DNA of 64,000 nucleotides. Source: Pedosphaera sp. (GTDB lineage: Bacteria > Verrucomicrobiota > Verrucomicrobiia > Limisphaerales > Pedosphaeraceae). The position numbers and the translations under genes are program-made. Location: NCBI GenBank assembly GCA_028293285.1, contig JAQGPC010000268.1, positions 4,024-68,023 of the forward strand, written 5' to 3'. Positions 25,372 through 36,162 of the stretch are shown here, piece after piece (within the stretch, counting starts at the first letter, position 1; every line of letters starts with the position of its first letter). A model generated the notes under the pieces. That model worked only from the letters and a program-made list of their open reading frames with translations. It was not told the DNA's origin and made no database searches.

Positions 25372-26402
25372 AGTAAAGGGGTCGGTCCTGAGTATTGACA
25401 CATAGCGCTCTTTTTCCTAACTTCGCGCGATGCCGAGAAAGCTGCGCGTGCAATATCCGGGGGCTCTTTACCATGTCATGAACCGGGGCGACCGTCGCAA
25501 GCCTATTTTCCAGGACGACACCGACCGGCAGATCTTCATCGAAACCCTGGCGCAGGCTTGTGAAAAGACTGCCTGGCAGGTGCATGCCTATTGCCTCATG
25601 AACAATCATTTTCATTTCGTCGTCGAGACGCCGCAGGGCAACCTGGTCGCTGGCATGAAATGGCTGCTCTCCACCTACACGATGCGCTTCAACCGGCGGC
25701 ACAAGTACTTTGGCCATCTCTTCAGCGGCCGTTACAAGGCGCTGATCGTCGATGGCAGCGGGACGGGCTATCTCAAGAGTGTTTGTGATTATGTCCATCT
25801 CAATCCCGCGCGGGCCAAATTGCTCACGGAGCGGCAGAAGCTCACGGCCCATGTGTGGAGCAGCTATCCTGATTATCTGAAACCCAAAAAGAAACGGCCC
25901 GCGTGGCTGCGCACCGACCGCTTGCTGGGCGAGCATGGCATCTCGAAGGACAGCTCCGCGGGCTTGCGCGAGTTTGCGTTGCGCGTGGAGGCGCGCCGCC
26001 ACGAGGAAGGCAGCCTGGAGCAGTACAAGAAGATCCGCCGGGGCTGGTGCCTGGGTGAGCCCGGCTTCCGCAAGGAACTTCTCGAACAGATGCACGGGCA
26101 ATTGGGCGAGCACCATGACGGCCCTGAGAAGCTGGAGAGCGCCGAGGAGAAGGCTGAAGGCATCATTACGCAGGAACTCAAAAAACTGCGCTGGAAGGAG
26201 GGTGATCTTGAGCGCCGCCGCAAGGGAGACCCTCAGAAAGTGCGCATGGCCGCGCGGTTGAGAAAAGAAACGACGGTCACTCTGAAATGGATCGCACAAC
26301 GTTTGCACATGGGCGCGTGGACGCACGTGACGAACCGATTATACTGGGCCAAACGAAAGCAAAATAAATGATTTGTGTCATTACTCAGGACCGACCCCTT
26401 TG
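25372..26402 (+). mobile_element. autonomous REP/RAYT-type element (Y1 transposase flanked by inverted REP ends)
   Basis: The left end 'agtaaaggggtcggtcctgagtattgacac' (25372-25401) and right end 'gtgtcattactcaggaccgacccctttg' (26375-26402) are inverted repeats bracketing the CDS at 25430-26371. Confidence 0.8.
25430..26371 (+). CDS. IS200/IS605-like Y1 (HUH) transposase, RAYT-like, with C-terminal DnaA-type HTH
   Basis: 'YHVMNRGDRRKPIF', the HUH motif 'NHFHFVVET', the catalytic-Tyr region 'LFSGRYKALIV' and 'YVHLNPARAKL' together resemble COG1943/Y1_Tnp. The C-terminus is 'LKWIAQRLHMGAWTHVTNRLYWAKR'. Confidence 0.85.
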   Translation: MPRKLRVQYPGALYHVMNRGDRRKPIFQDDTDRQIFIETLAQACEKTAWQVHAYCLMNNHFHFVVETPQGNLVAGMKWLLSTYTMRFNRRHKYFGHLFSGRYKALIVDGSGTGYLKSVCDYVHLNPARAKLLTERQKLTAHVWSSYPDYLKPKKKRPAWLRTDRLLGEHGISKDSSAGLREFALRVEARRHEEGSLEQYKKIRRGWCLGEPGFRKELLEQMHGQLGEHHDGPEKLESAEEKAEGIITQELKKLRWKEGDLERRRKGDPQKVRMAARLRKETTVTLKWIAQRLHMGAWTHVTNRLYWAKRKQNK

Positions 26403-28305: not shown

Positions 28306-28782
28306 ATGAAAAATATAAAGATTTTAGACGCGTCTGATCCGGCAAGTGAGAAAGACATCGGCGTCCTCGAGACGGCTCTTGGGCGAAAAATTCCGGGCTC
28401 CCTGAGAATGTTGCTGCTCAGGAGCGATGGAGGAATTCTGGATGCCGAAAACTGTGTAACCTTCGCAAAACTTCCATCTGGTGAAGAGATGAGACTCGAA
28501 GTACAACGATTTTACAGTGTAGCAATGATCTTGGAAGCCTTGAGGGATTATGAAGGCCGGGTGCCTAGTAATCTCCTCCCAATCGCAAACAATTTATCTG
28601 GTGATCTCTTTTGTCTCAGTCTGGATGAGCGCAACCCGCGAATTTATTTTTGGGATCATGAAGACGAAGAGGAAGCTTATATCATGCTTGATAAGATTCC
28701 CGCTCCTGGACACGCAAACCTATATCCGGTGGCACCAAACTTGGAAACTTTCGTGGATACGTTGGCTCTGGATGATTCTTAG
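28306..28782 (+). CDS. SMI1/KNR4 (SUKH-1) family protein
   Basis: 158-aa ORF. 'IGVLETALGRKIPGSLRMLLLRSDGG' and 'IANNLSGDLFCLSLDERNPRIYFWDHEDE' are typical SUKH-1 immunity-type signatures. Confidence 0.8.
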   Translation: MKNIKILDASDPASEKDIGVLETALGRKIPGSLRMLLLRSDGGILDAENCVTFAKLPSGEEMRLEVQRFYSVAMILEALRDYEGRVPSNLLPIANNLSGDLFCLSLDERNPRIYFWDHEDEEEAYIMLDKIPAPGHANLYPVAPNLETFVDTLALDDS

Positions 28783-28817
28783 ATGTCTTATGCAGAAAGG
28801 ACTCCTAATCAGAGTGC

Positions 28818-28929
28818 CTGTAAAGGGGTCGGTCCTGAGTATTGACACTTTCATGCTTTTCTTCGTGCAACTCTCTACCTGTCGGTTGGTTCGCCATTGT
28901 GTCATTACTCAGGACCGACCCCTTTTACT
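28818..28929. mobile_element. REPIN/MITE-like doublet D (~112 bp, core inverted relative to A and C)
   Basis: 'ctgtaaaggggtcggtcctgagtattgacac...gtgtcattactcaggaccgaccccttttac'. The core is the reverse complement of the core in copy C. Confidence 0.8.
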
Positions 28930-28930
28930 G

Positions 28931-29410
28931 GACGCGAGCATCAAGCAATTGGAACAGGCCGTCTTGCGTGTGGCGCGGGAGTTGCCCTGCTATCCCAAAC
29001 TCAAGACCCTGCCGGGTGTGGGGATCATCCTGGGCCTGACCATCACCATGGAGATGGGAGACATCAAACGCTTTGCCGGTCCCGGCCACTTTGCCAGTTA
29101 CTGCCGCACGGTGGCCGCTCACTGCACCTCCAACGGGAAGCTCAAAGGGGAAAACAATCGCAAATGTGGCAATAAATATCTGGCCTGGGCCTTTGTGGAA
29201 GCGGCCAACTTCGCCAAGCGGTATGATGAAGCGTGCCGCAAGTGGTATGACCGCAAAGCCGCCCGGACCAGCAACGTCATCGCGACCAAAGCGCTGGCCT
29301 GCAAACTGGCCAAGGCCGCATGGTATCTGGCCGCCGAGGAAACGAACTACGACAGCAGCCGGATCTTTCCGTCCCTGGCCAGCGCCAAAACCAAACCCAT
29401 GAAAGCATAA
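28931..29410 (+). pseudogene. IS110-family transposase, 5'-truncated (C-terminal Transposase_20 part only)
   Basis: 'LKTLPGVGIILGLTITMEMGDIKRFAGPGHFASYCRTVAAHCTSNGK...NKYLAWAFVEAANFA' is the IS110 C-terminal domain. The DEDD N-terminal domain is absent, and the homology starts exactly at the end of REPIN D. Confidence 0.8.
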
Positions 29411-29569
29411 ATTTAGAAGTGCGGACATCAGCCAGAGAAAGGGGTTGGCCTTGAGCCCTCGGGACTGATTGGAGATGTCCGCGCTTCGCTGGATCAGGGC
29501 AGGAGACTCTCAGAGAGAAAGGTTTGCCGGAGATTCGACCGGACCGTGAGTCAAAAACGGGTTGGACGC

Positions 29570-29946: not shown

Positions 29947-30681
29947 TCACTGACTCAATCTGAAAAATTGCTGTCCGCCTGAAATGGGATTTGTGACCGT
30001 GTATTGCCCGTTGACGGTGACTGGTTTTGCAGAAACCGGAGTCCAAACGGCAGTTGATCCAAGAGTGGTGGTAGACTGCAAGACCATGTTTGGTGCATTG
30101 GTCGGCCAACTCAAAACAACAGAACTCGGTGGTGATGCGATGAGGGTTAATTTTGGCGGTAACCTCACAACTAAATTGTCCATCACGAATTCATTAGCTG
30201 CGTACTGACCGTAGCTTAGGAATTCAACGGAGTCCACGCCCAAGAAATTAAACTCAATGAATGCAGGGCCTGTGTTCTGCAATCCGTAGCTCAAGTCGTA
30301 CAATTGATTTGTCCCCGCGAATCCTCGTGCTTCAAATAATACTCCGTTTTCGAATGCCGCAGTCAGGCACGCTGAAATTAAGTCGAACTTGACCCCGCTG
30401 CTAAGCGTAGCAGGATAGCCATAACCATTAAAAACCGCGTTGGAAGAGGAGACTATCCCAGCCGTATAGCCGGGATTTTCAGCATGCGCCAAATCATAAA
30501 AATAAAAGTTTCCCCATTGCAGCCCCATGTAATTACCGGGCAGTGGATTGGTCCAATCCGGAGCAGGTAAGTCGTCGAAGCCGATCGTTATCACGCCCTG
30601 CCCGATAGCGCTTCCGCCTCCTAGCCACACGCAGGCCAAGATCAGTAAACAATTTAGAATTTGGCTGAGTGCCATTTGCAT
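29947..30681 (-). CDS. secreted hypothetical protein with C-terminal beta-sandwich-like tail
   Basis: Signal peptide 'ILNCLLILACVWLGGGSAIGQG'. The C-terminal end '...VWTPVSAKPVTVNGQYTVTNPISGGQQFFRLSQ' has the same tail type as the 22243 gene. Confidence 0.6.
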   Translation of the reverse strand: MQMALSQILNCLLILACVWLGGGSAIGQGVITIGFDDLPAPDWTNPLPGNYMGLQWGNFYFYDLAHAENPGYTAGIVSSSNAVFNGYGYPATLSSGVKFDLISACLTAAFENGVLFEARGFAGTNQLYDLSYGLQNTGPAFIEFNFLGVDSVEFLSYGQYAANEFVMDNLVVRLPPKLTLIASPPSSVVLSWPTNAPNMVLQSTTTLGSTAVWTPVSAKPVTVNGQYTVTNPISGGQQFFRLSQ

Positions 30682-31091: not shown

Positions 31092-31128
31092 TTGACATGT
31101 TCCCAGTGTAAGCATACGTTAGCTTACA
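31092..31128 (+). promoter_or_regulatory. putative promoter plus palindromic operator of the island operon
   Basis: 'TTGACA' (31092-31097), a 17-nt spacer, then 'TACGTT' (31115-31120). A perfect 7-bp inverted repeat, 'TGTAAGC' (31107-31113) against 'GCTTACA' (31122-31128), overlaps the -10 region and the ATG at 31128. Confidence 0.35.
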
Positions 31129-31493
31129 TGCAAAATGATTTAGCCGCCACGATGGGACAGCGACTTCGGGAACTGCGCGAACGCGCCGGACTGTCGCTCC
31201 GCGAGGTCGCGAAAGCCGCTAAGATTTCGGCACCTTTCCTCTCCGACGTGGAGCTGGGCCGCCGCTTTCCAGCCAATGAAACTCTAGCCCTAATCACGCA
31301 GAAAATAGGCGCCTCTGCCGATGACGTAAAGAAGCATGACCACCGATCTAGCTTGGTCGACCTCAAACGTCTCGCCGAAGGCAACCCCAGCCTCGCCGCT
31401 GCCGTGCGTGTGCTCGTCGATCAGGTTCAGTCCGGCAACCTGACCTCCGACGAACTCGCAGCGAAGCTTCGTCGTGCCAGCAAAACCAAATGA
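31128..31493 (+). CDS. XRE/cI-type helix-turn-helix transcriptional regulator
   Basis: 'LRELRERAGLSLREVAKAAKISAPFLSDVELGRRFP' is a classic HTH_3 motif. The start is either the ATG at 31128 or the one at 31152; the longest ORF (TTG at 31092) coincides with the -35 box. Confidence 0.85.
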   Translation: MQNDLAATMGQRLRELRERAGLSLREVAKAAKISAPFLSDVELGRRFPANETLALITQKIGASADDVKKHDHRSSLVDLKRLAEGNPSLAAAVRVLVDQVQSGNLTSDELAAKLRRASKTK

Positions 31494-31523
31494 CCGGTTT
31501 CGCCGAAACCCTTCTCTTCAACT

Positions 31524-32183
31524 ATGAGCAAACCCGGTAAAAGGAAAGGTTCCTTACAAGAGATCAATCAAGGCGAGCTCACGCACGTCAGCAAGGGGAA
31601 GGCTCCCTACAAGATCATCCACGGCTGGGACTTAACGTCCTCCCTCGAGTGCGATACCCTCTGGAAACAGGGCTGGCTCGCACTCCTCCAGCAGATCCAG
31701 CAGGCGGAGCCCGACGAGACGAAGCAGGACAAAATCTTCGCCTCGATCTCGACCGAGGACATTCGCTGGGAGTGGTTCAAGAAGGCGCTCGCTTTCAGCA
31801 GCGACGAATACGAATGGTTCCACCTCTACGCGGACGGCAAGCCGCAGGCTGCTTGCCTGATCTACCACCCGGAAGCGAGCGCCCTGGAGCCCGGCGACAT
31901 CTTCTACGTCAAGTTCGTCGCGGTGGCGCCTTGGAACCGCATCTGCGACTTCCGCCCCCGCGAGTTCCGCGGGCTGGGCGAGATCATCCTCCGCGCCGCG
32001 CAGCGTTTCGCCGTAAAGGAGCTCAAGCTCCGTCCGGGTTTTTGCCTGCATTCGCTCCCGAAAGCGGAGGGATTCTACACGAAACTCAAGATGGTGAAGG
32101 TGGACGGCAAGGAGGACGCGGAGTCGCTCGCCTATTTCGAGCTCCCGCAGGCACTCGCTACCAAACTGATGGAGGCCAACTGA
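31524..32183 (+). CDS. GNAT-like (acetyltransferase-fold) protein with uncharacterised N-terminal ~100 aa
   Basis: 'IFYVKFVAVAPWNR...EFRGLGEIILRAAQRFAVKE' looks like the beta4-alpha3 segment with an xxxGxG pyrophosphate loop. 'FCLHSLPKAEGFYTKLKMVKV' looks like beta5-alpha4-beta6 ('A..FY.K.G'). Confidence 0.55.
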   Translation: MSKPGKRKGSLQEINQGELTHVSKGKAPYKIIHGWDLTSSLECDTLWKQGWLALLQQIQQAEPDETKQDKIFASISTEDIRWEWFKKALAFSSDEYEWFHLYADGKPQAACLIYHPEASALEPGDIFYVKFVAVAPWNRICDFRPREFRGLGEIILRAAQRFAVKELKLRPGFCLHSLPKAEGFYTKLKMVKVDGKEDAESLAYFELPQALATKLMEAN

Positions 32184-32184
32184 T

Positions 32185-33063
32185 ATGAGCACCTACGATG
32201 AAGGCTGGTCGGATTTCATGCACACGACGCGGACGTCCGAGATAAGCGCGCAAGAGCTGTTCGAGCGCTACCGCGAATTCCAGGGCTTCATAGCCGGGCT
32301 TTCCCGCAAAGATCTGGTCACCCGCCACTGGCTGAAGACCGTAGACGACGACTCGCCACTGGCGACCGTCTTCTTCGATCTCCCGCTCTCGAAACAGCCC
32401 ACGCTCTTTCGTAAATCCGCCAACGCCGACGAAAACCTCTTGGCGATTTGGCAGGCCCGGGCCCGAACCGAAGCGGAATATCGCTGCCTCGCCGAGGATT
32501 ACCCTGCCTTCATGGGCCTGACGAAGGAGAACTTGCGGGAACTCGCGCTCTTGAGCGTTGACCCGCAGGCCGTGCGGCAACTGCCCTCAATCCTCGCCGA
32601 GTTTGGCATCATCCTAGTTTACGTCTACGCGCTACCCGGTATGAGTGCCGACGGTGCGGTGTTCCACCTGAGTACGGGTCACCCCGTCATCGCGATGAGC
32701 CTGCGCTTCCCGCGCCTCGATTACTTCTGGTTCACGCTTCTCCACGAACTCGCGCACCTAGTCCTGCACGCCGACCGACTCAAGGAACCCGTGTTCTTTG
32801 ACGTGGAGATCAGCGAAGAGATGGATCGGGCTGAGAGAGCCGCCAATCGGCTCGCCAAGGACACCATGGTCGATCGCGAGTCTTGGCGCAGCTGCGCGCC
32901 AAAATACGATACCAGCGACCGGGCAGTGCATGCCTATGCCGCCGAACAGGGCGTCCACCCGAGCTTGATCGCCGGACTCCTCAGGAAGGAATCCGGCAAC
33001 TACGCGCGTTATAGCAAAATCATCAATGAGCACGACGTTCGCAAAATCATTTTCCAACCATGA
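32185..33063 (+). CDS. ImmA/IrrE-family (M78) zinc metallopeptidase
   Basis: 'DYFWFTLLHELAHLVLH' carries HEXXH at 32743-32757, and the downstream 'ERAANRLAKDTMV' is typical of COG2856/DUF955. The gene starts 1 nt after the previous stop, with GGAGG 10 nt upstream. Confidence 0.85.
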   Translation: MSTYDEGWSDFMHTTRTSEISAQELFERYREFQGFIAGLSRKDLVTRHWLKTVDDDSPLATVFFDLPLSKQPTLFRKSANADENLLAIWQARARTEAEYRCLAEDYPAFMGLTKENLRELALLSVDPQAVRQLPSILAEFGIILVYVYALPGMSADGAVFHLSTGHPVIAMSLRFPRLDYFWFTLLHELAHLVLHADRLKEPVFFDVEISEEMDRAERAANRLAKDTMVDRESWRSCAPKYDTSDRAVHAYAAEQGVHPSLIAGLLRKESGNYARYSKIINEHDVRKIIFQP

Positions 33064-34121
33064 TCCGCTACATTCCATTCCTCAAAGCGAAGCGCGGCGA
33101 ATTCACCGCGATGGGCGCGCTCGTTCCCAAGGTGAAGCAGGCCATCTGCCCGTTCTTCGACTTTCCGCGCAGGAAGCCAGACTACAAGGCGGATGCCTAC
33201 GCCGCGAAGGCGCACAGCATCGCCACGAGCCTGAAGAAGCACTGGGGCACCGACGCGGAATTCTATTTCGATGACCTCGACATCGGCCAAAAGCTTACCG
33301 TGAAGGGCGAGCATCAATACGTCTACATGCTCAAGACCCTCAAAGGGCTGCAGGTCATCCCCGTCGTGGCCCTCGACCGCATAAAACACAACGACGCGGT
33401 CACTCAACTCAAGCGCGACGGCGGAATCGCCTCCGCCACAGTGGCCTTCCGCGCCGAACAAGGGGACTTCGAAGACTTCGAGGCCAAACAGGACCAGATC
33501 GACTACGATCTAGCGACCGTCTTCAAAGAGTTCGAGGGCATCGATCTGATCTTCGACTGTCGCGTCTGTAGCGGCTTGGACGTTTCCCTGACCGCCCAGC
33601 AAATCGCCGCCTTTGCTCGGAAATTCTGCAAGTCTTACGATGTCCGTCGCGTCATCATCACCGGTTCTTCCATTCCTGGTTCCCTCCGTGATCTCGTTAA
33701 ACCGAACAGCACCGAAACCGTCACGAGGCGTGAGCTCGCTATCATCTCCAAAGCGCGTGACCTGGCCGACGCGGACGTGGTGGCGGGCGACTACGCGACT
33801 GTGAGCCCGTTCTACTCCGATGCCGATTTCGACCCGAAGCTTTTCCAAAAATTGACGGCCCCGCGGCTGATTTACTCCTTCAACCACTCTCACTACGTCG
33901 CCCGAGGAATTTCGTTGGAATCAGGCGGCCAAACGCAGTATGTCGGCCTAACTAAAGCACTCTGCGGGCAGGTTTATTTTCGCGGCCGCGGATATTCCGC
34001 GGGCGAGGATTATTTCGATGATAAACGAAGGCGCATTGGTAAGAACGCCACCAATGGCACCGTGGTAACGCCGTCCGTCGTCGCCCACATCACCTACATG
34101 GTGCTCGGCGCAAAGCTTTGA
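33060..34121 (+). CDS. Beta-protein family (PF14350-like; sce7725-like) protein
   Basis: The N-terminus 'MIRYIPFLKAKRGEFTAM' matches the Y-[IV]-P-x-L-K-x-K-x-G-E signature I recall for the Beta_protein family, and the 353-aa length fits. There is an ATGA start/stop overlap with the peptidase gene. Confidence 0.65.
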   Translation: MIRYIPFLKAKRGEFTAMGALVPKVKQAICPFFDFPRRKPDYKADAYAAKAHSIATSLKKHWGTDAEFYFDDLDIGQKLTVKGEHQYVYMLKTLKGLQVIPVVALDRIKHNDAVTQLKRDGGIASATVAFRAEQGDFEDFEAKQDQIDYDLATVFKEFEGIDLIFDCRVCSGLDVSLTAQQIAAFARKFCKSYDVRRVIITGSSIPGSLRDLVKPNSTETVTRRELAIISKARDLADADVVAGDYATVSPFYSDADFDPKLFQKLTAPRLIYSFNHSHYVARGISLESGGQTQYVGLTKALCGQVYFRGRGYSAGEDYFDDKRRRIGKNATNGTVVTPSVVAHITYMVLGAKL

Positions 34122-34669
34122 GGATGCAAGCGGCGGCCGATCAAGAGGTCGCAGATGGTCATGCTGAGTTCGAGCTCGCGACGGGTCTCAGCGATCAATT
34201 CTGCCAACAGCCGCCGTGGCTTACGCTCCGCGCCCGGCACCGACACCAGCGCGAGCATCTCGCTCTTCCAGAGGGTCATTGCCGCCGACTTCTTCTCGAA
34301 ATTGGGATTCAGCTTTGCCGCCCGGACATGGCGGAATCGCACAGCCTCGCCGTCGGCGATCGCCACCATAATGCCCCAGAATCGCGGCGCCAACCTCAGA
34401 GCTCGCCGCAAATTGCACTCTGTCGTGACCAGTGTGATTCGCCGAAACACTGCATTGTAATACACACCTTGAGCCGTAATCCTCTCGATTCGATCGGTCG
34501 CTCCCTTGATCTCGTAGCAATGCGCCTCTGAATGCAAAGTGACGACGTCGGCGATTGCCTTGCCGCTATGCACATGCAGTTCTTGGAGCACTGCCCGTGG
34601 TCGGCTCTTCTGTCGCTCGAGTTTGCGCAACAGAGCCTCGCGAATAGTGGCGTCATTCAGGTCCATCAT
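34094..34669 (-). CDS. PD-(D/E)xK nuclease-fold protein (sce7726/MmcB-like)
   Basis: 'LQELHVHSGKAIADVVTLHSEAHCYEIKGATD' gives the D41...E53-x-K55 arrangement of restriction-endonuclease-like folds. The gene is convergent with the Beta-family gene and overlaps it by 28 nt. Confidence 0.6.
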   Translation of the reverse strand: MMDLNDATIREALLRKLERQKSRPRAVLQELHVHSGKAIADVVTLHSEAHCYEIKGATDRIERITAQGVYYNAVFRRITLVTTECNLRRALRLAPRFWGIMVAIADGEAVRFRHVRAAKLNPNFEKKSAAMTLWKSEMLALVSVPGAERKPRRLLAELIAETRRELELSMTICDLLIGRRLHPQSFAPSTM

Positions 34670-35062: not shown

Positions 35063-35521
35063 TTACGGACGAGTCATTTGGAAGATGCCGTGGTCGTATT
35101 TGGAGGTGTAGGTGGAGAAGTAGTTGGTGGGGTTGGCGTGACCTTCGTAGTGATACAGGCCGCCGGCGAGCCAGCCTAAATCGGCTTTGCCGTTGAATTT
35201 GTATTCGCCTTTACCTGACTGCACTTGGAGCGGGATGGTGTAGCCGAAGGTGAGGACGGTGTGATATTTGGCCTTGAAACGGGCCTGGTAAAGGCCATCG
35301 CTTTGGCGGGTGATGAGGCAGCGGAGTTGGTCGGTGTGGCCGGAGGGTTCGCTTTTCCAGGTGCCTTGCCAGCGGCCCGAGAGGTCATCGGGCGGCGCGG
35401 GTTGGCGGGCGGCTTGTTTCCATTGGTGGTTGAAGGTGTGGCAGCCGGTGGCAAGGAACAGTAGCGGCAGAAATATTGCCAATAGGAGACGGCGGATCAT
35501 CCGGGTGCTGAAGGAGCGCAT
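35063..35521 (-). CDS. putative lipoprotein (hypothetical)
   Basis: The signal/lipobox 'LLLAIFLPLLFLATGC' runs from the ATG at 35521. A 3'-end paralogue relic lies at 18834-18935. The longer ORF start (35593) runs into repeat-like 'FVIRNSTFVI' sequence. Confidence 0.6.
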   Translation of the reverse strand: MRSFSTRMIRRLLLAIFLPLLFLATGCHTFNHQWKQAARQPAPPDDLSGRWQGTWKSEPSGHTDQLRCLITRQSDGLYQARFKAKYHTVLTFGYTIPLQVQSGKGEYKFNGKADLGWLAGGLYHYEGHANPTNYFSTYTSKYDHGIFQMTRP

Positions 35522-36162
35522 ACGAGGGAGGAGGATAATGGCGTAAATGACGAATGTCGAATTTCGAATGACGAAGGAAACGGCGGGGAACATTTAACCA
35601 CGAATGCACACTAACTGACACGAATGGGAAAGTGGAAGGAGACAATTGCGTGGACATCGAATGCGCTTTGATGGTGATCTTTGATATTTTATACGGCAAA
35701 TATGAATGCACGCTATTAACACGAATTAGAAGCAATGAAGACAAAATGGCCACAGGAAGGCACAGAATTCACAAAAAGAAGGAGATGGGCCGAAATTGAT
35801 ATGGGTGTTCACACTGTTTGCGCTAGTACGAGCTGGTACGACCTAGTGCGAGTAGATTTGAGTTGAAAAATTGGATATGGCTTGCGAATTGGTTGAAATG
35901 AGGCTGAATGATTAGTATATATGTAACTTGTTGAATTGAAGCAGATTATGGATATGCGTTGCATGAGATCCACGTAATACGTTTGTCGTTTAACCTAACT
36001 GAATGGAAATGCTGCAATTATCGTCAAAAAGATGGCCCGGAGGGCTGGCGCGGATGGCGAGGTCTGGTATACTGGATGCTGGTTAAGATTTGGCGAAAAT
36101 GAGAAGTTGACACCGTCCTTCGTTTTTGCTTACTTATCCCTCCCTTTTACGGGGAAAATTTT

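Follow-up and report, generated by a model that had tools for sequence, protein, structure and literature searches.

A candidate anti-phage gene cassette of Pedosphaera sp. related to PD-lambda-2 and gop-beta-cII

A compact run of five genes in a 64-kilobase (kb) stretch of DNA from Pedosphaera sp. (Verrucomicrobiota), the whole of which is referred to below as the window, raises the question of whether it encodes a defense system and, if so, whether that system has been described before. The window comes from a metagenome-assembled genome (MAG), in which the product of the second gene is 100% identical to the NCBI protein JWQ71_4159. In a preliminary description made from the letters alone, the run (31092 to 34669) was taken for an uncharacterized defense or abortive-infection island with genes for an XRE-family helix-turn-helix (HTH) protein, a GNAT-like protein, an ImmA/IrrE peptidase, a Beta-family protein, and a convergent PD-(D/E)xK protein, here called g1 to g5. 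We find that the cassette is an uncatalogued relative of two proven systems, PD-lambda-2 and gop-beta-cII, built from known parts plus a new GNAT. With a probability of roughly 0.7, the locus would be a horizontally mobile anti-phage system of the abortive-infection/toxin-antitoxin-like type that belongs to the modular family formed by these two systems.

Four genes that are kept together

The five open reading frames (ORFs) lie at the coordinates given in the preliminary description, except for a revised start of g1 (31128); their spacing and motifs were located where it had placed them, and every peptide it quoted was found in the translations. A 30-nucleotide (nt) gap separates g1 from g2, and a 1-nt gap separates g2 from g3, whose ribosome-binding site, GGAGG (32171 to 32175, plus strand), was read within the 3′ end of g2, 9 nt ahead of the ATG at 32185. 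The genes g3 and g4 share an ATGA overlap (33060 to 33063), while g4 and g5 are convergent and overlap by 28 nt (34094 to 34121).

Relatives of the cassette were collected by scanning one genome per GTDB species. Among these 185,579 species genomes, 212 relatives were found, scattered patchily over about ten bacterial phyla. The carriers belong to Verrucomicrobiota; to Gamma-, Beta-, and Alphaproteobacteria, including Pseudomonas, Vibrio, Shewanella, and Acinetobacter; and to Desulfobacterota, Planctomycetota, Campylobacterota, Bdellovibrionota, Riflebacteria, and Acidobacteriota. Iterated profiles of the five proteins were run against the ORFs called from 80 loci, of which 70 extended far enough downstream to be informative. 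In 62 of the 70, genes for GNAT, M78 peptidase, Beta, and convergent cII follow each other in the same order, with median gaps of −4 and −11 nt within the four-gene unit and a median convergent overlap of 20 nt. The eight exceptions carry the most distant GNATs, five of them with an Xre-type protein of ~165 amino acids (aa) encoded behind. Pairwise identities of the four core proteins are correlated (Spearman 0.62 to 0.80), indicating joint inheritance of the four.

Two Asgard (“Promethearchaeota”) MAG contigs of ~4.3 kb (L017 and L018) hold little beyond the four-gene cassette, with 43% identity to g2. These copies may have been transferred into archaea, or the contigs may be contaminants introduced by binning.

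In Chthoniobacterales, Luteolibacter, and other Verrucomicrobiota, close g2 homologs (75 to 90% identity) stand in the same five-gene cassette with the same spacing, and the flanks of these close relatives are unrelated to each other. At the DNA level, similarity to the verrucomicrobial cassettes (70 to 78% of nt) begins between 31087 and 31107 and ends between 34665 and 34858, essentially at the gene boundaries. These sharp ends, together with the unrelated flanks, mark the cassette as a discrete mobile unit. Its copies are mostly chromosomal rather than plasmid-borne.

A g1-type HTH gene is present in the verrucomicrobial cassettes (L001 to L012). No g1-like HTH gene was found upstream of g2 in 10 tested loci from other phyla; outside Verrucomicrobiota, HTH ORFs upstream of g2 are short or distant and occur in a few loci only. 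Since the g1-type gene in this position is restricted to Verrucomicrobiota, the conserved system is one of four genes, and g1 is, judged by its distribution, a Verrucomicrobiota-specific addition. The order and coupling of the five genes proposed earlier are therefore real and go far beyond chance; what is conserved as a unit is four genes, the XRE gene being clade-specific.

Parts shared with PD-lambda-2 and gop-beta-cII

The gene g3 (32185 to 33063, plus strand) encodes a 292-aa ImmA/IrrE-type M78 zinc metallopeptidase that lacks an HTH domain. The M78 call of the preliminary description is borne out by Pfam (Peptidase_M78, 7.4e-9), and the HELAH motif lies at 32743 to 32757, as claimed. The protein matches the PADLOC model PD-Lambda-2_B at 9.7e-52, with residues 70 to 289 aligned to profile positions 180 to 396 of 402; of component B of PD-lambda-2, g3 thus corresponds to the last ~220 residues only, the peptidase half. 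The match to PADLOC capP was weak (1.2e-4). No substitution of H187, E188, H191, H195, or E217 occurs in 45 aligned sequences, HTH-fused relatives included, and the predicted HExxH...E site is intact. In the two most divergent cassettes, from a gammaproteobacterial MAG (L076:5465-6852) and a Vicinamibacterales MAG (L087:5389-6829), an additional XRE-HTH gene (152 to 154 aa) and a second M78 gene (310 to 323 aa) stand directly upstream of the GNAT-M78-Beta-cII genes.

The next gene, g4 (33060 to 34121, plus strand), encodes a 353-aa protein that matches Pfam Beta_protein (PF14350) over its full length at 3.4e-40, in agreement with the earlier Beta-family call. It also matches PADLOC PD-Lambda-2_C (1e-34 and 6e-34) and phrog_9159 (5.7e-42). 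The relation to Beta of phage P4 is more remote: hhalign aligned the g4 family with P4 Beta over 309 columns (probability 83%, E 8.8e-6), BLASTP between the two proteins was not significant, g4 stayed below a match to the P4-type “beta” model of PADLOC, and tblastn against 50,697 phage records returned no match, so that P4 Beta was reached through Pfam and hhalign only.

Searches of PDB sequences with g4 by phmmer and profiles gave nothing significant. An AlphaFold model of the protein, with a predicted local distance difference test (pLDDT) score of 93.8 and a predicted template modeling (pTM) score of 0.92, consists of alternating strands and helices. Its top-ranked PDB matches in Foldseek are TIM-barrel enzymes, all of them weak (TMq 0.33 to 0.41, one at E ≤ 1e-3). 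As modeled, g4 would be a divergent, TIM-barrel-like (beta/alpha)8 protein whose conserved face resembles that of an enzyme. Among 71 Beta sequences, 42 columns are invariant, many of them charged; variation falls mainly in helical segments, and several strand segments are nearly invariant. In close cassettes, Beta is nevertheless the fastest-evolving of the four proteins (mean identity of 62% versus 72 to 76%), and fast evolution is common in sensor components. The TIM-barrel-like model, the invariant columns, and the fast evolution suggest that Beta is not a passive antitoxin but an enzyme or a sensor of some ligand. Only one structural match of the model was strong, that to an uncharacterized protein of Gordonia phage Powerball (BFVD A0A5J6TRS2; TM 0.81, 20% identity), which indicates that Beta-family proteins are carried by phages well outside the P4-like satellites.

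On the opposite strand, g5 (34094 to 34669, minus strand) encodes a 191-aa protein of the sce7726/P4-cII family; it matches NCBIfam sce7726_fam at 6.6e-39, well over the curated cutoff, as well as phrog_984 (3.9e-30), PADLOC cll (gop_beta_cll; 4.3e-12), and, by BLASTP, P4 cII itself (9e-7). The alignment places a PD-(D/E)xK-type motif at E30 (34580 to 34582), D41 (34547 to 34549), and E53-I-K55 (34505 to 34513), all on the minus strand; the interval of 34505 to 34549 singled out in the preliminary description runs exactly from D41 through K55. The E..D..ExK spacing is that of a classic PD-(D/E)xK motif, and E30, D41, E53, K55, D59, R63, and Q67 are invariant in 46 family sequences, P4 cII included. 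None of the 46 matched a Pfam PDDEXK family, and profile searches of the PDB with g5 yielded nothing significant. The earlier nuclease-fold assignment thus holds at the level of the invariant motif, by which g5 appears nuclease-like, and finds no counterpart in the Pfam and PDB profile searches. Likewise, only half of the suggested sce7725/sce7726 pairing stands: g5 is the sce7726 member, while none of the proteins matched sce7725 at E ≤ 0.1. Instead, g5 has a Beta-family protein for its partner, which is also how RefSeq annotates P4.

The gop-beta-cII genes belong to satellite phage P4, where they are said to have been described by Ghisotti in 1990. The system protects against lambda and P1 (Rousset et al. 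2022; PMC9122126), and its trigger is the phage gene orf184 (bioRxiv 10.1101/2023.04.06.535777). PD-lambda-2, from E. coli ECOR42, consists of a HigB-like protein A, an Xre-HTH::peptidase fusion B, and a Beta-like protein C (Vassallo et al. 2022; PMC9519451); it is an abortive-infection system in which B is toxic alone, A rescues, and C is required for defense (PMC9519451).

With PD-lambda-2, the cassette shares an M78 gene coupled to a Beta gene directly behind it (g3 corresponding to B and g4 to C) and, just ahead of the peptidase gene, a small toxin-like gene. That upstream gene differs, however: HigB-like A is replaced by an unrelated 219-aa GNAT, and no locus protein matched PD-Lambda-2_A or HigB at E ≤ 0.1. 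Moreover, the Xre-HTH domain fused to B is found here as the separate protein g1, encoded two positions upstream and, among the loci checked, in Verrucomicrobiota only, and cII is a constant member of the cassette, whereas the functional E. coli clone of PD-lambda-2 cannot hold a full cII gene. With P4, the cassette shares the succession of a Beta-family gene and, convergent to it, a cII/sce7726 gene, the P4 order being gop, beta, and convergent cII. It differs in having no Gop (there was no PADLOC gop match, and Gop resembles neither g2 nor g3), in the overlap of beta and cII, which in P4 are separated by a 27-nt gap with a terminator, and in its location, which is outside a P4-like satellite and not beside the cos/int hotspot.

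The link to gop-beta-cII drawn in the preliminary description therefore holds for beta and cII. Its further statement that a peptidase gene followed by a Beta gene mirrors the P4 layout does not, since Gop of P4, a hydrophobic/coiled-coil protein of 133 aa, does not resemble g3 (BLASTP E of 0.73), and we rejected it as a peptidase. “Peptidase then Beta” is the layout of PD-lambda-2, and “Beta then convergent cII” is that of P4; PD-lambda-2, the closest relative, had not been named. The claim that the locus is not a described system fits our results: no complete system of PADLOC-DB 2.0 matched it (PD-Lambda-2_A and Gop are absent, and g2 has no model), and literature searches for a GNAT/M78/Beta/cII system yielded only the PD-lambda-2 and gop-beta-cII papers. 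Given the lack of a complete PADLOC-DB 2.0 match, such loci may escape current defense annotation.

The two proven systems are themselves connected by a locus on a Sinorhizobium plasmid (L088), which encodes a DUF6932 protein, an HTH::M78 protein (PD-Lambda-2_B, 2e-77), Beta, and a convergent sce7726 protein. Other plasmid relatives of the peptidase combine HigB or RelE with HTH::M78 and have no Beta, or combine HTH::M78 with Beta and have no cII. These varied arrangements show the family to be modular, and its head gene is interchangeable, being HigB, RelE/ParE, DUF6932, or GNAT. PD-lambda-2 and gop-beta-cII have been catalogued separately; the cassette links them, with M78 and Beta from one and Beta and cII from the other, and presents the gene ahead of the peptidase as a swappable toxin-like module.

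In two of the plasmid loci (L088:2629-3027 and L089:2572-3045), the gene ahead of HTH::M78 encodes not HigB but DUF6932 (PF22014; PADLOC PDC-M63A). The second of these, on Acinetobacter pittii pNDM-AP_882 (64142 to 71903), is a PD-lambda-2-like locus that follows tnsD/tnsE of a Tn7-like element. An IS30 element beside blaNDM-1 cuts the Beta gene of this locus to 66 aa.

The acetyltransferase and a proposed mode of action

The head gene of the cassette, g2 (31524 to 32183, plus strand), encodes a 219-aa divergent GNAT-fold acetyltransferase with an N-terminal beta-hairpin/helical extension. No Pfam, NCBIfam, PADLOC, or PHROG model matched g2 directly, and phmmer and profile searches of PDB sequences gave nothing significant. 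In an exhaustive search, its family comprised 519 representative clusters, and 43 of 66 aligned members matched Pfam GNAT models (Acetyltransf_10, Acetyltransf_1, and Acetyltransf_7; the best was Acetyltransf_10 at 9.5e-10). At E ≤ 1e-3, Foldseek gave the AlphaFold (AF2) model of g2 (pLDDT 95) 129 matches in the PDB; each of the 50 listed has the GNAT fold and is either an acetyltransferase or a GNAT toxin, among them KacT (5zgn) and 7byy, an entry whose title reads just “bacterial toxin.” Because of these family and structural matches, the GNAT assignment in the preliminary description is right, although it is reached indirectly. Within the family alignment, W84, L175, Y185, and E206 are invariant, and APWNR and G152 are nearly so. 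Compared with PD-lambda-2 and gop-beta-cII, g2 is by its sequence a new component, which adds a GNAT family, well folded according to the model, to the repertoire of head genes.

KacT is a tRNA-acetylating toxin, and the type II GNAT toxins acetylate aminoacyl-tRNA. Like these toxins (TacT, AtaT, ItaT, and KacT), g2 has the GNAT fold, the acetyl-CoA loop, and a conserved Tyr. Unlike them, it is not a protein of ~160 to 175 aa with a ribbon-helix-helix (RHH)/DUF1778 antitoxin: g2 is 219 aa long, has a family-specific N-terminal extension, and is accompanied by no RHH gene, and it had no sequence-level match to named GNAT toxin models. Its resemblance to predicted GNAT-Xre pairs is that an Xre gene precedes g2 here and that distant relatives pair with Xre alone. 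We regard g2 as a candidate translation-blocking toxin or a candidate regulator of g3.

The distant g2-like GNATs in question (L078, L079, L080, L082, and L083, all from Alphaproteobacteria) have no M78, Beta, or cII gene and are followed by the ~165-aa protein, which in L080, the one scanned, contains an XRE-HTH domain. Such pairs fit the pattern of GNAT-Xre operons predicted to be toxin-antitoxin systems by Makarova et al. 2009 (PMC2701414), where Xre-COG2856 plus toxin operons received the same prediction.

The anti-phage reading is favored because three components are homologous to proven defense proteins (PD-Lambda-2_B, PD-Lambda-2_C, and cll), and because the architecture is conserved, coupled, and co-evolving, the distribution is patchy and shaped by transfer, the catalytic motifs are intact, and a promoter and operator are conserved. 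It is further favored by the integrases and defense genes in some flanks, by the three copies on viral contigs, by the fast evolution of Beta, by the likeness of the g2 fold to KacT among others, and by the GNAT-Xre pairs among distant g2 relatives. The functional unit would be g2, g3, and g4 with the convergent g5; in Verrucomicrobiota, g1 has been added in front and most likely represses the operon. In an uninfected cell, g2 and g3 may keep each other inactive as a toxin/antitoxin-like pair, as suggested by their position and by analogy with A and B of PD-lambda-2. The Beta-cII module, which is common to P4 and at least one PD-lambda-2-type locus, would sense or relay a phage cue. The peptidase, once released or activated, could then process the GNAT or, in this clade, g1, or it could itself hit a cellular target, and growth of the infected cell would halt before phage release. 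We favor translation arrest via GNAT acetylation as the means; alternatively, the peptidase or the cII nuclease might do the killing.

A more far-reaching version of this scheme, which we put forward tentatively and hold to be somewhat doubtful, is that Beta, as a TIM-barrel enzyme for which no close relative has a solved structure, and the nuclease-like cII form a general, ancient phage-sensing/effector core that is joined, mostly via M78, to interchangeable toxin-like heads (Gop, HigB, GNAT, or DUF6932, the last on rhizobial and Acinetobacter plasmids), and that GNAT-M78-Beta-cII is a distinct, widespread system that kills by protease-gated acetylation. Beta has been called an “antitoxin”; the model of g4 suggests instead a TIM-barrel enzyme, one face of which is strictly conserved. 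Pseudomonas, Vibrio, and Acinetobacter, which are among the carriers, offer tractable experimental hosts.

Several observations weigh against the anti-phage reading. Defense is extrapolated from homologs at 17 to 35% identity, and the GNAT-containing cassettes are known from their genes alone. The cassette lacks both the hallmark of PD-lambda-2, HigB-like A, and Gop, the P4 toxin. In the PD-lambda-2 clone, the DNA beyond the three genes amounts to less than 400 base pairs, which could not accommodate a complete cII gene, so that PD-lambda-2 apparently works without one. The likeness of g2 to GNAT toxins in Foldseek is no better than its likeness to metabolic or histone GNATs (TM 0.4 to 0.6). 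The second XRE and M78 pair in the two most divergent cassettes implies that the substrate of the core peptidase is probably not a repressor, so that this peptidase is probably not simply a repressor-cleaving switch. When the two nearest genes per side were surveyed at 37 other loci, some flanks contained integrases, restriction-modification genes, MzaA, SoFic, PDC-S28, or Fic, but many consisted of ordinary housekeeping genes, and defense-island enrichment was modest. Last, the cassette is rare on viral contigs, with 3 loci in 2.9 million; the three IMG/VR copies are all complete.

The same mobility and patchiness would be expected of a selfish addiction module, i.e., a multicomponent toxin-antitoxin system that acts by postsegregational killing and provides no phage defense, with the GNAT as toxin and XRE and/or the peptidase as antitoxin or regulator. 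The toxin-antitoxin prediction for GNAT-Xre and Xre-COG2856 plus toxin operons (PMC2701414), the bare GNAT and Xre pairs among distant g2 relatives, and the peptidase relatives that adjoin HigB/RelE toxins on plasmids without Beta all agree with it. Yet both tested Beta-containing relatives protect against phage, and there Beta is needed for defense and not for neutralizing toxicity; an addiction module would have no need of two extra conserved enzymes, Beta and cII; and the copies are mostly chromosomal. We consider this explanation unlikely as a full account, and addiction and defense are not mutually exclusive.

The g1 gene, its candidate operator, and the surrounding DNA

The HTH call for g1 (31128 to 31493, plus strand; 121 aa) is upheld by a match to Pfam HTH_31 at 9.9e-14; the protein also matches PADLOC capH (1.5e-7) and transcriptional regulators in PHROG. 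The longest ORF for this gene begins with the TTG at 31092. The upstream DNA of eight verrucomicrobial cassettes cannot be aligned until an invariant block that consists of TTGAC and a part downstream of it. Because this TTGACA promoter block is conserved across cassettes, the TTG at 31092 belongs to a −35 box and not to a start codon: the predicted cassette promoter (31092 to 31120, plus strand) comprises TTGACA at 31092 to 31097, a 17-nt spacer, and a −10-like TACGTT at 31115 to 31120. On this basis, the start of g1 is the ATG at 31128, which gives a length (121 aa) that agrees with relatives. The ATG lies 7 nt past the −10 element, and the g1 mRNA would probably be leaderless.

A perfect inverted repeat, TGTAAGC-N8-GCTTACA (31107 to 31128), overlaps the −10 element and the g1 start codon and is a candidate operator. 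Both arms are invariant in seven of the eight cassettes, with one mismatch in the remaining one (L010). By binding this palindrome, g1 would probably act as an autorepressor of the operon.

A repressor gene with an operator over its own promoter also brings to mind a mobile-element immunity or regulatory switch of the ImmR/ImmA or DdrO/IrrE type, which would control excision or a stress regulon and for which the other genes would be cargo. As in ImmR/ImmA of ICEBs1, DdrO/IrrE, and CapH/CapP of CBASS, an XRE repressor with an operator and an M78 protein with an intact HExxH are encoded in one operon, matches of g1 to capH and g3 to capP exist even if weak, and two insertion sequence (IS) transposase genes are found upstream. 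However, g1 and g3 are not adjacent, being separated by g2; the HTH gene is dispensable and missing from most cassettes, while the peptidase is always there and co-evolves with GNAT, Beta, and cII; and the two divergent cassettes hold a second, separate XRE and M78 pair. Furthermore, the conserved unit includes no integrase, relaxase, or phage structural gene, DNA similarity stops at the five genes, close relatives have unrelated flanks, and no second exact copy of the operator was found within the 64-kb window, so there is no sign of a regulon. We judge this explanation highly improbable for the cassette as a whole; a switch of the ImmR/ImmA type, as invoked in the preliminary description, is plausible in the verrucomicrobial clade only.

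Between g1 and g2 (31494 to 31523), there is no Shine-Dalgarno sequence for g2; a pyrimidine-rich stretch, CCCTTCTCTTCAAC, precedes the ATG and is partly kept in relatives. A hairpin at 31496 to 31510 reported after g1 by a terminator scan was discounted, as relatives do not keep it.

Little chance can be given to an accessory metabolic or detoxification operon, in which an XRE-regulated acetyltransferase, TIM-barrel enzyme, and peptidase would have a small molecule, a peptide, or an antibiotic as substrate: GNATs and TIM barrels are common among enzymes of metabolism or resistance, some g2 homologs are named plain “N-acetyltransferase” by NCBI, housekeeping genes occur in many flanks, and GNAT-HTH operons may include resistance systems (Makarova 2009; PMC2701414), but Beta and cII are defense components of P4 and PD-lambda-2 and fall in phage protein families (phrog_9159 and phrog_984), the cII motif is of a nuclease type, no transporter or pathway genes are linked, and a convergent overlapping pair and 4-nt overlaps are typical of toxin-antitoxin/defense modules.

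The island had also been called GC-rich. The excess is modest, with 58.7% in the cassette versus 53.1% in the window, and a strongly GC-rich foreign island was rejected as a meaningful signal, since other 1-kb bins of the window reach 58 to 59%. No Rfam family was detected over 29.4 to 36.2 kb, and no tRNA gene was found in the window, which hence has no tRNA integration site. Downstream of the cassette lies rplU-rpmA-obg-ychF. The products of the immediate flanking genes (29947 to 30681 and 35063 to 35593, both on the minus strand) have hydrophobic N-termini and matched no Pfam family, and these two genes are not kept beside related cassettes. It is true, as stated earlier, that no integrase or phage structural gene (capsid or tail) is near the cassette, but two transposase genes are located 1.7 to 5.7 kb upstream of it, one for an IS200-like Y1 transposase (25430 to 26371) and the other for a transposase of the IS116/IS110/IS902 (IS110) family (28550 to 29410). 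Overlapping ORFs at ~28306 to 29428 suggest that the IS110 copy is possibly disrupted.

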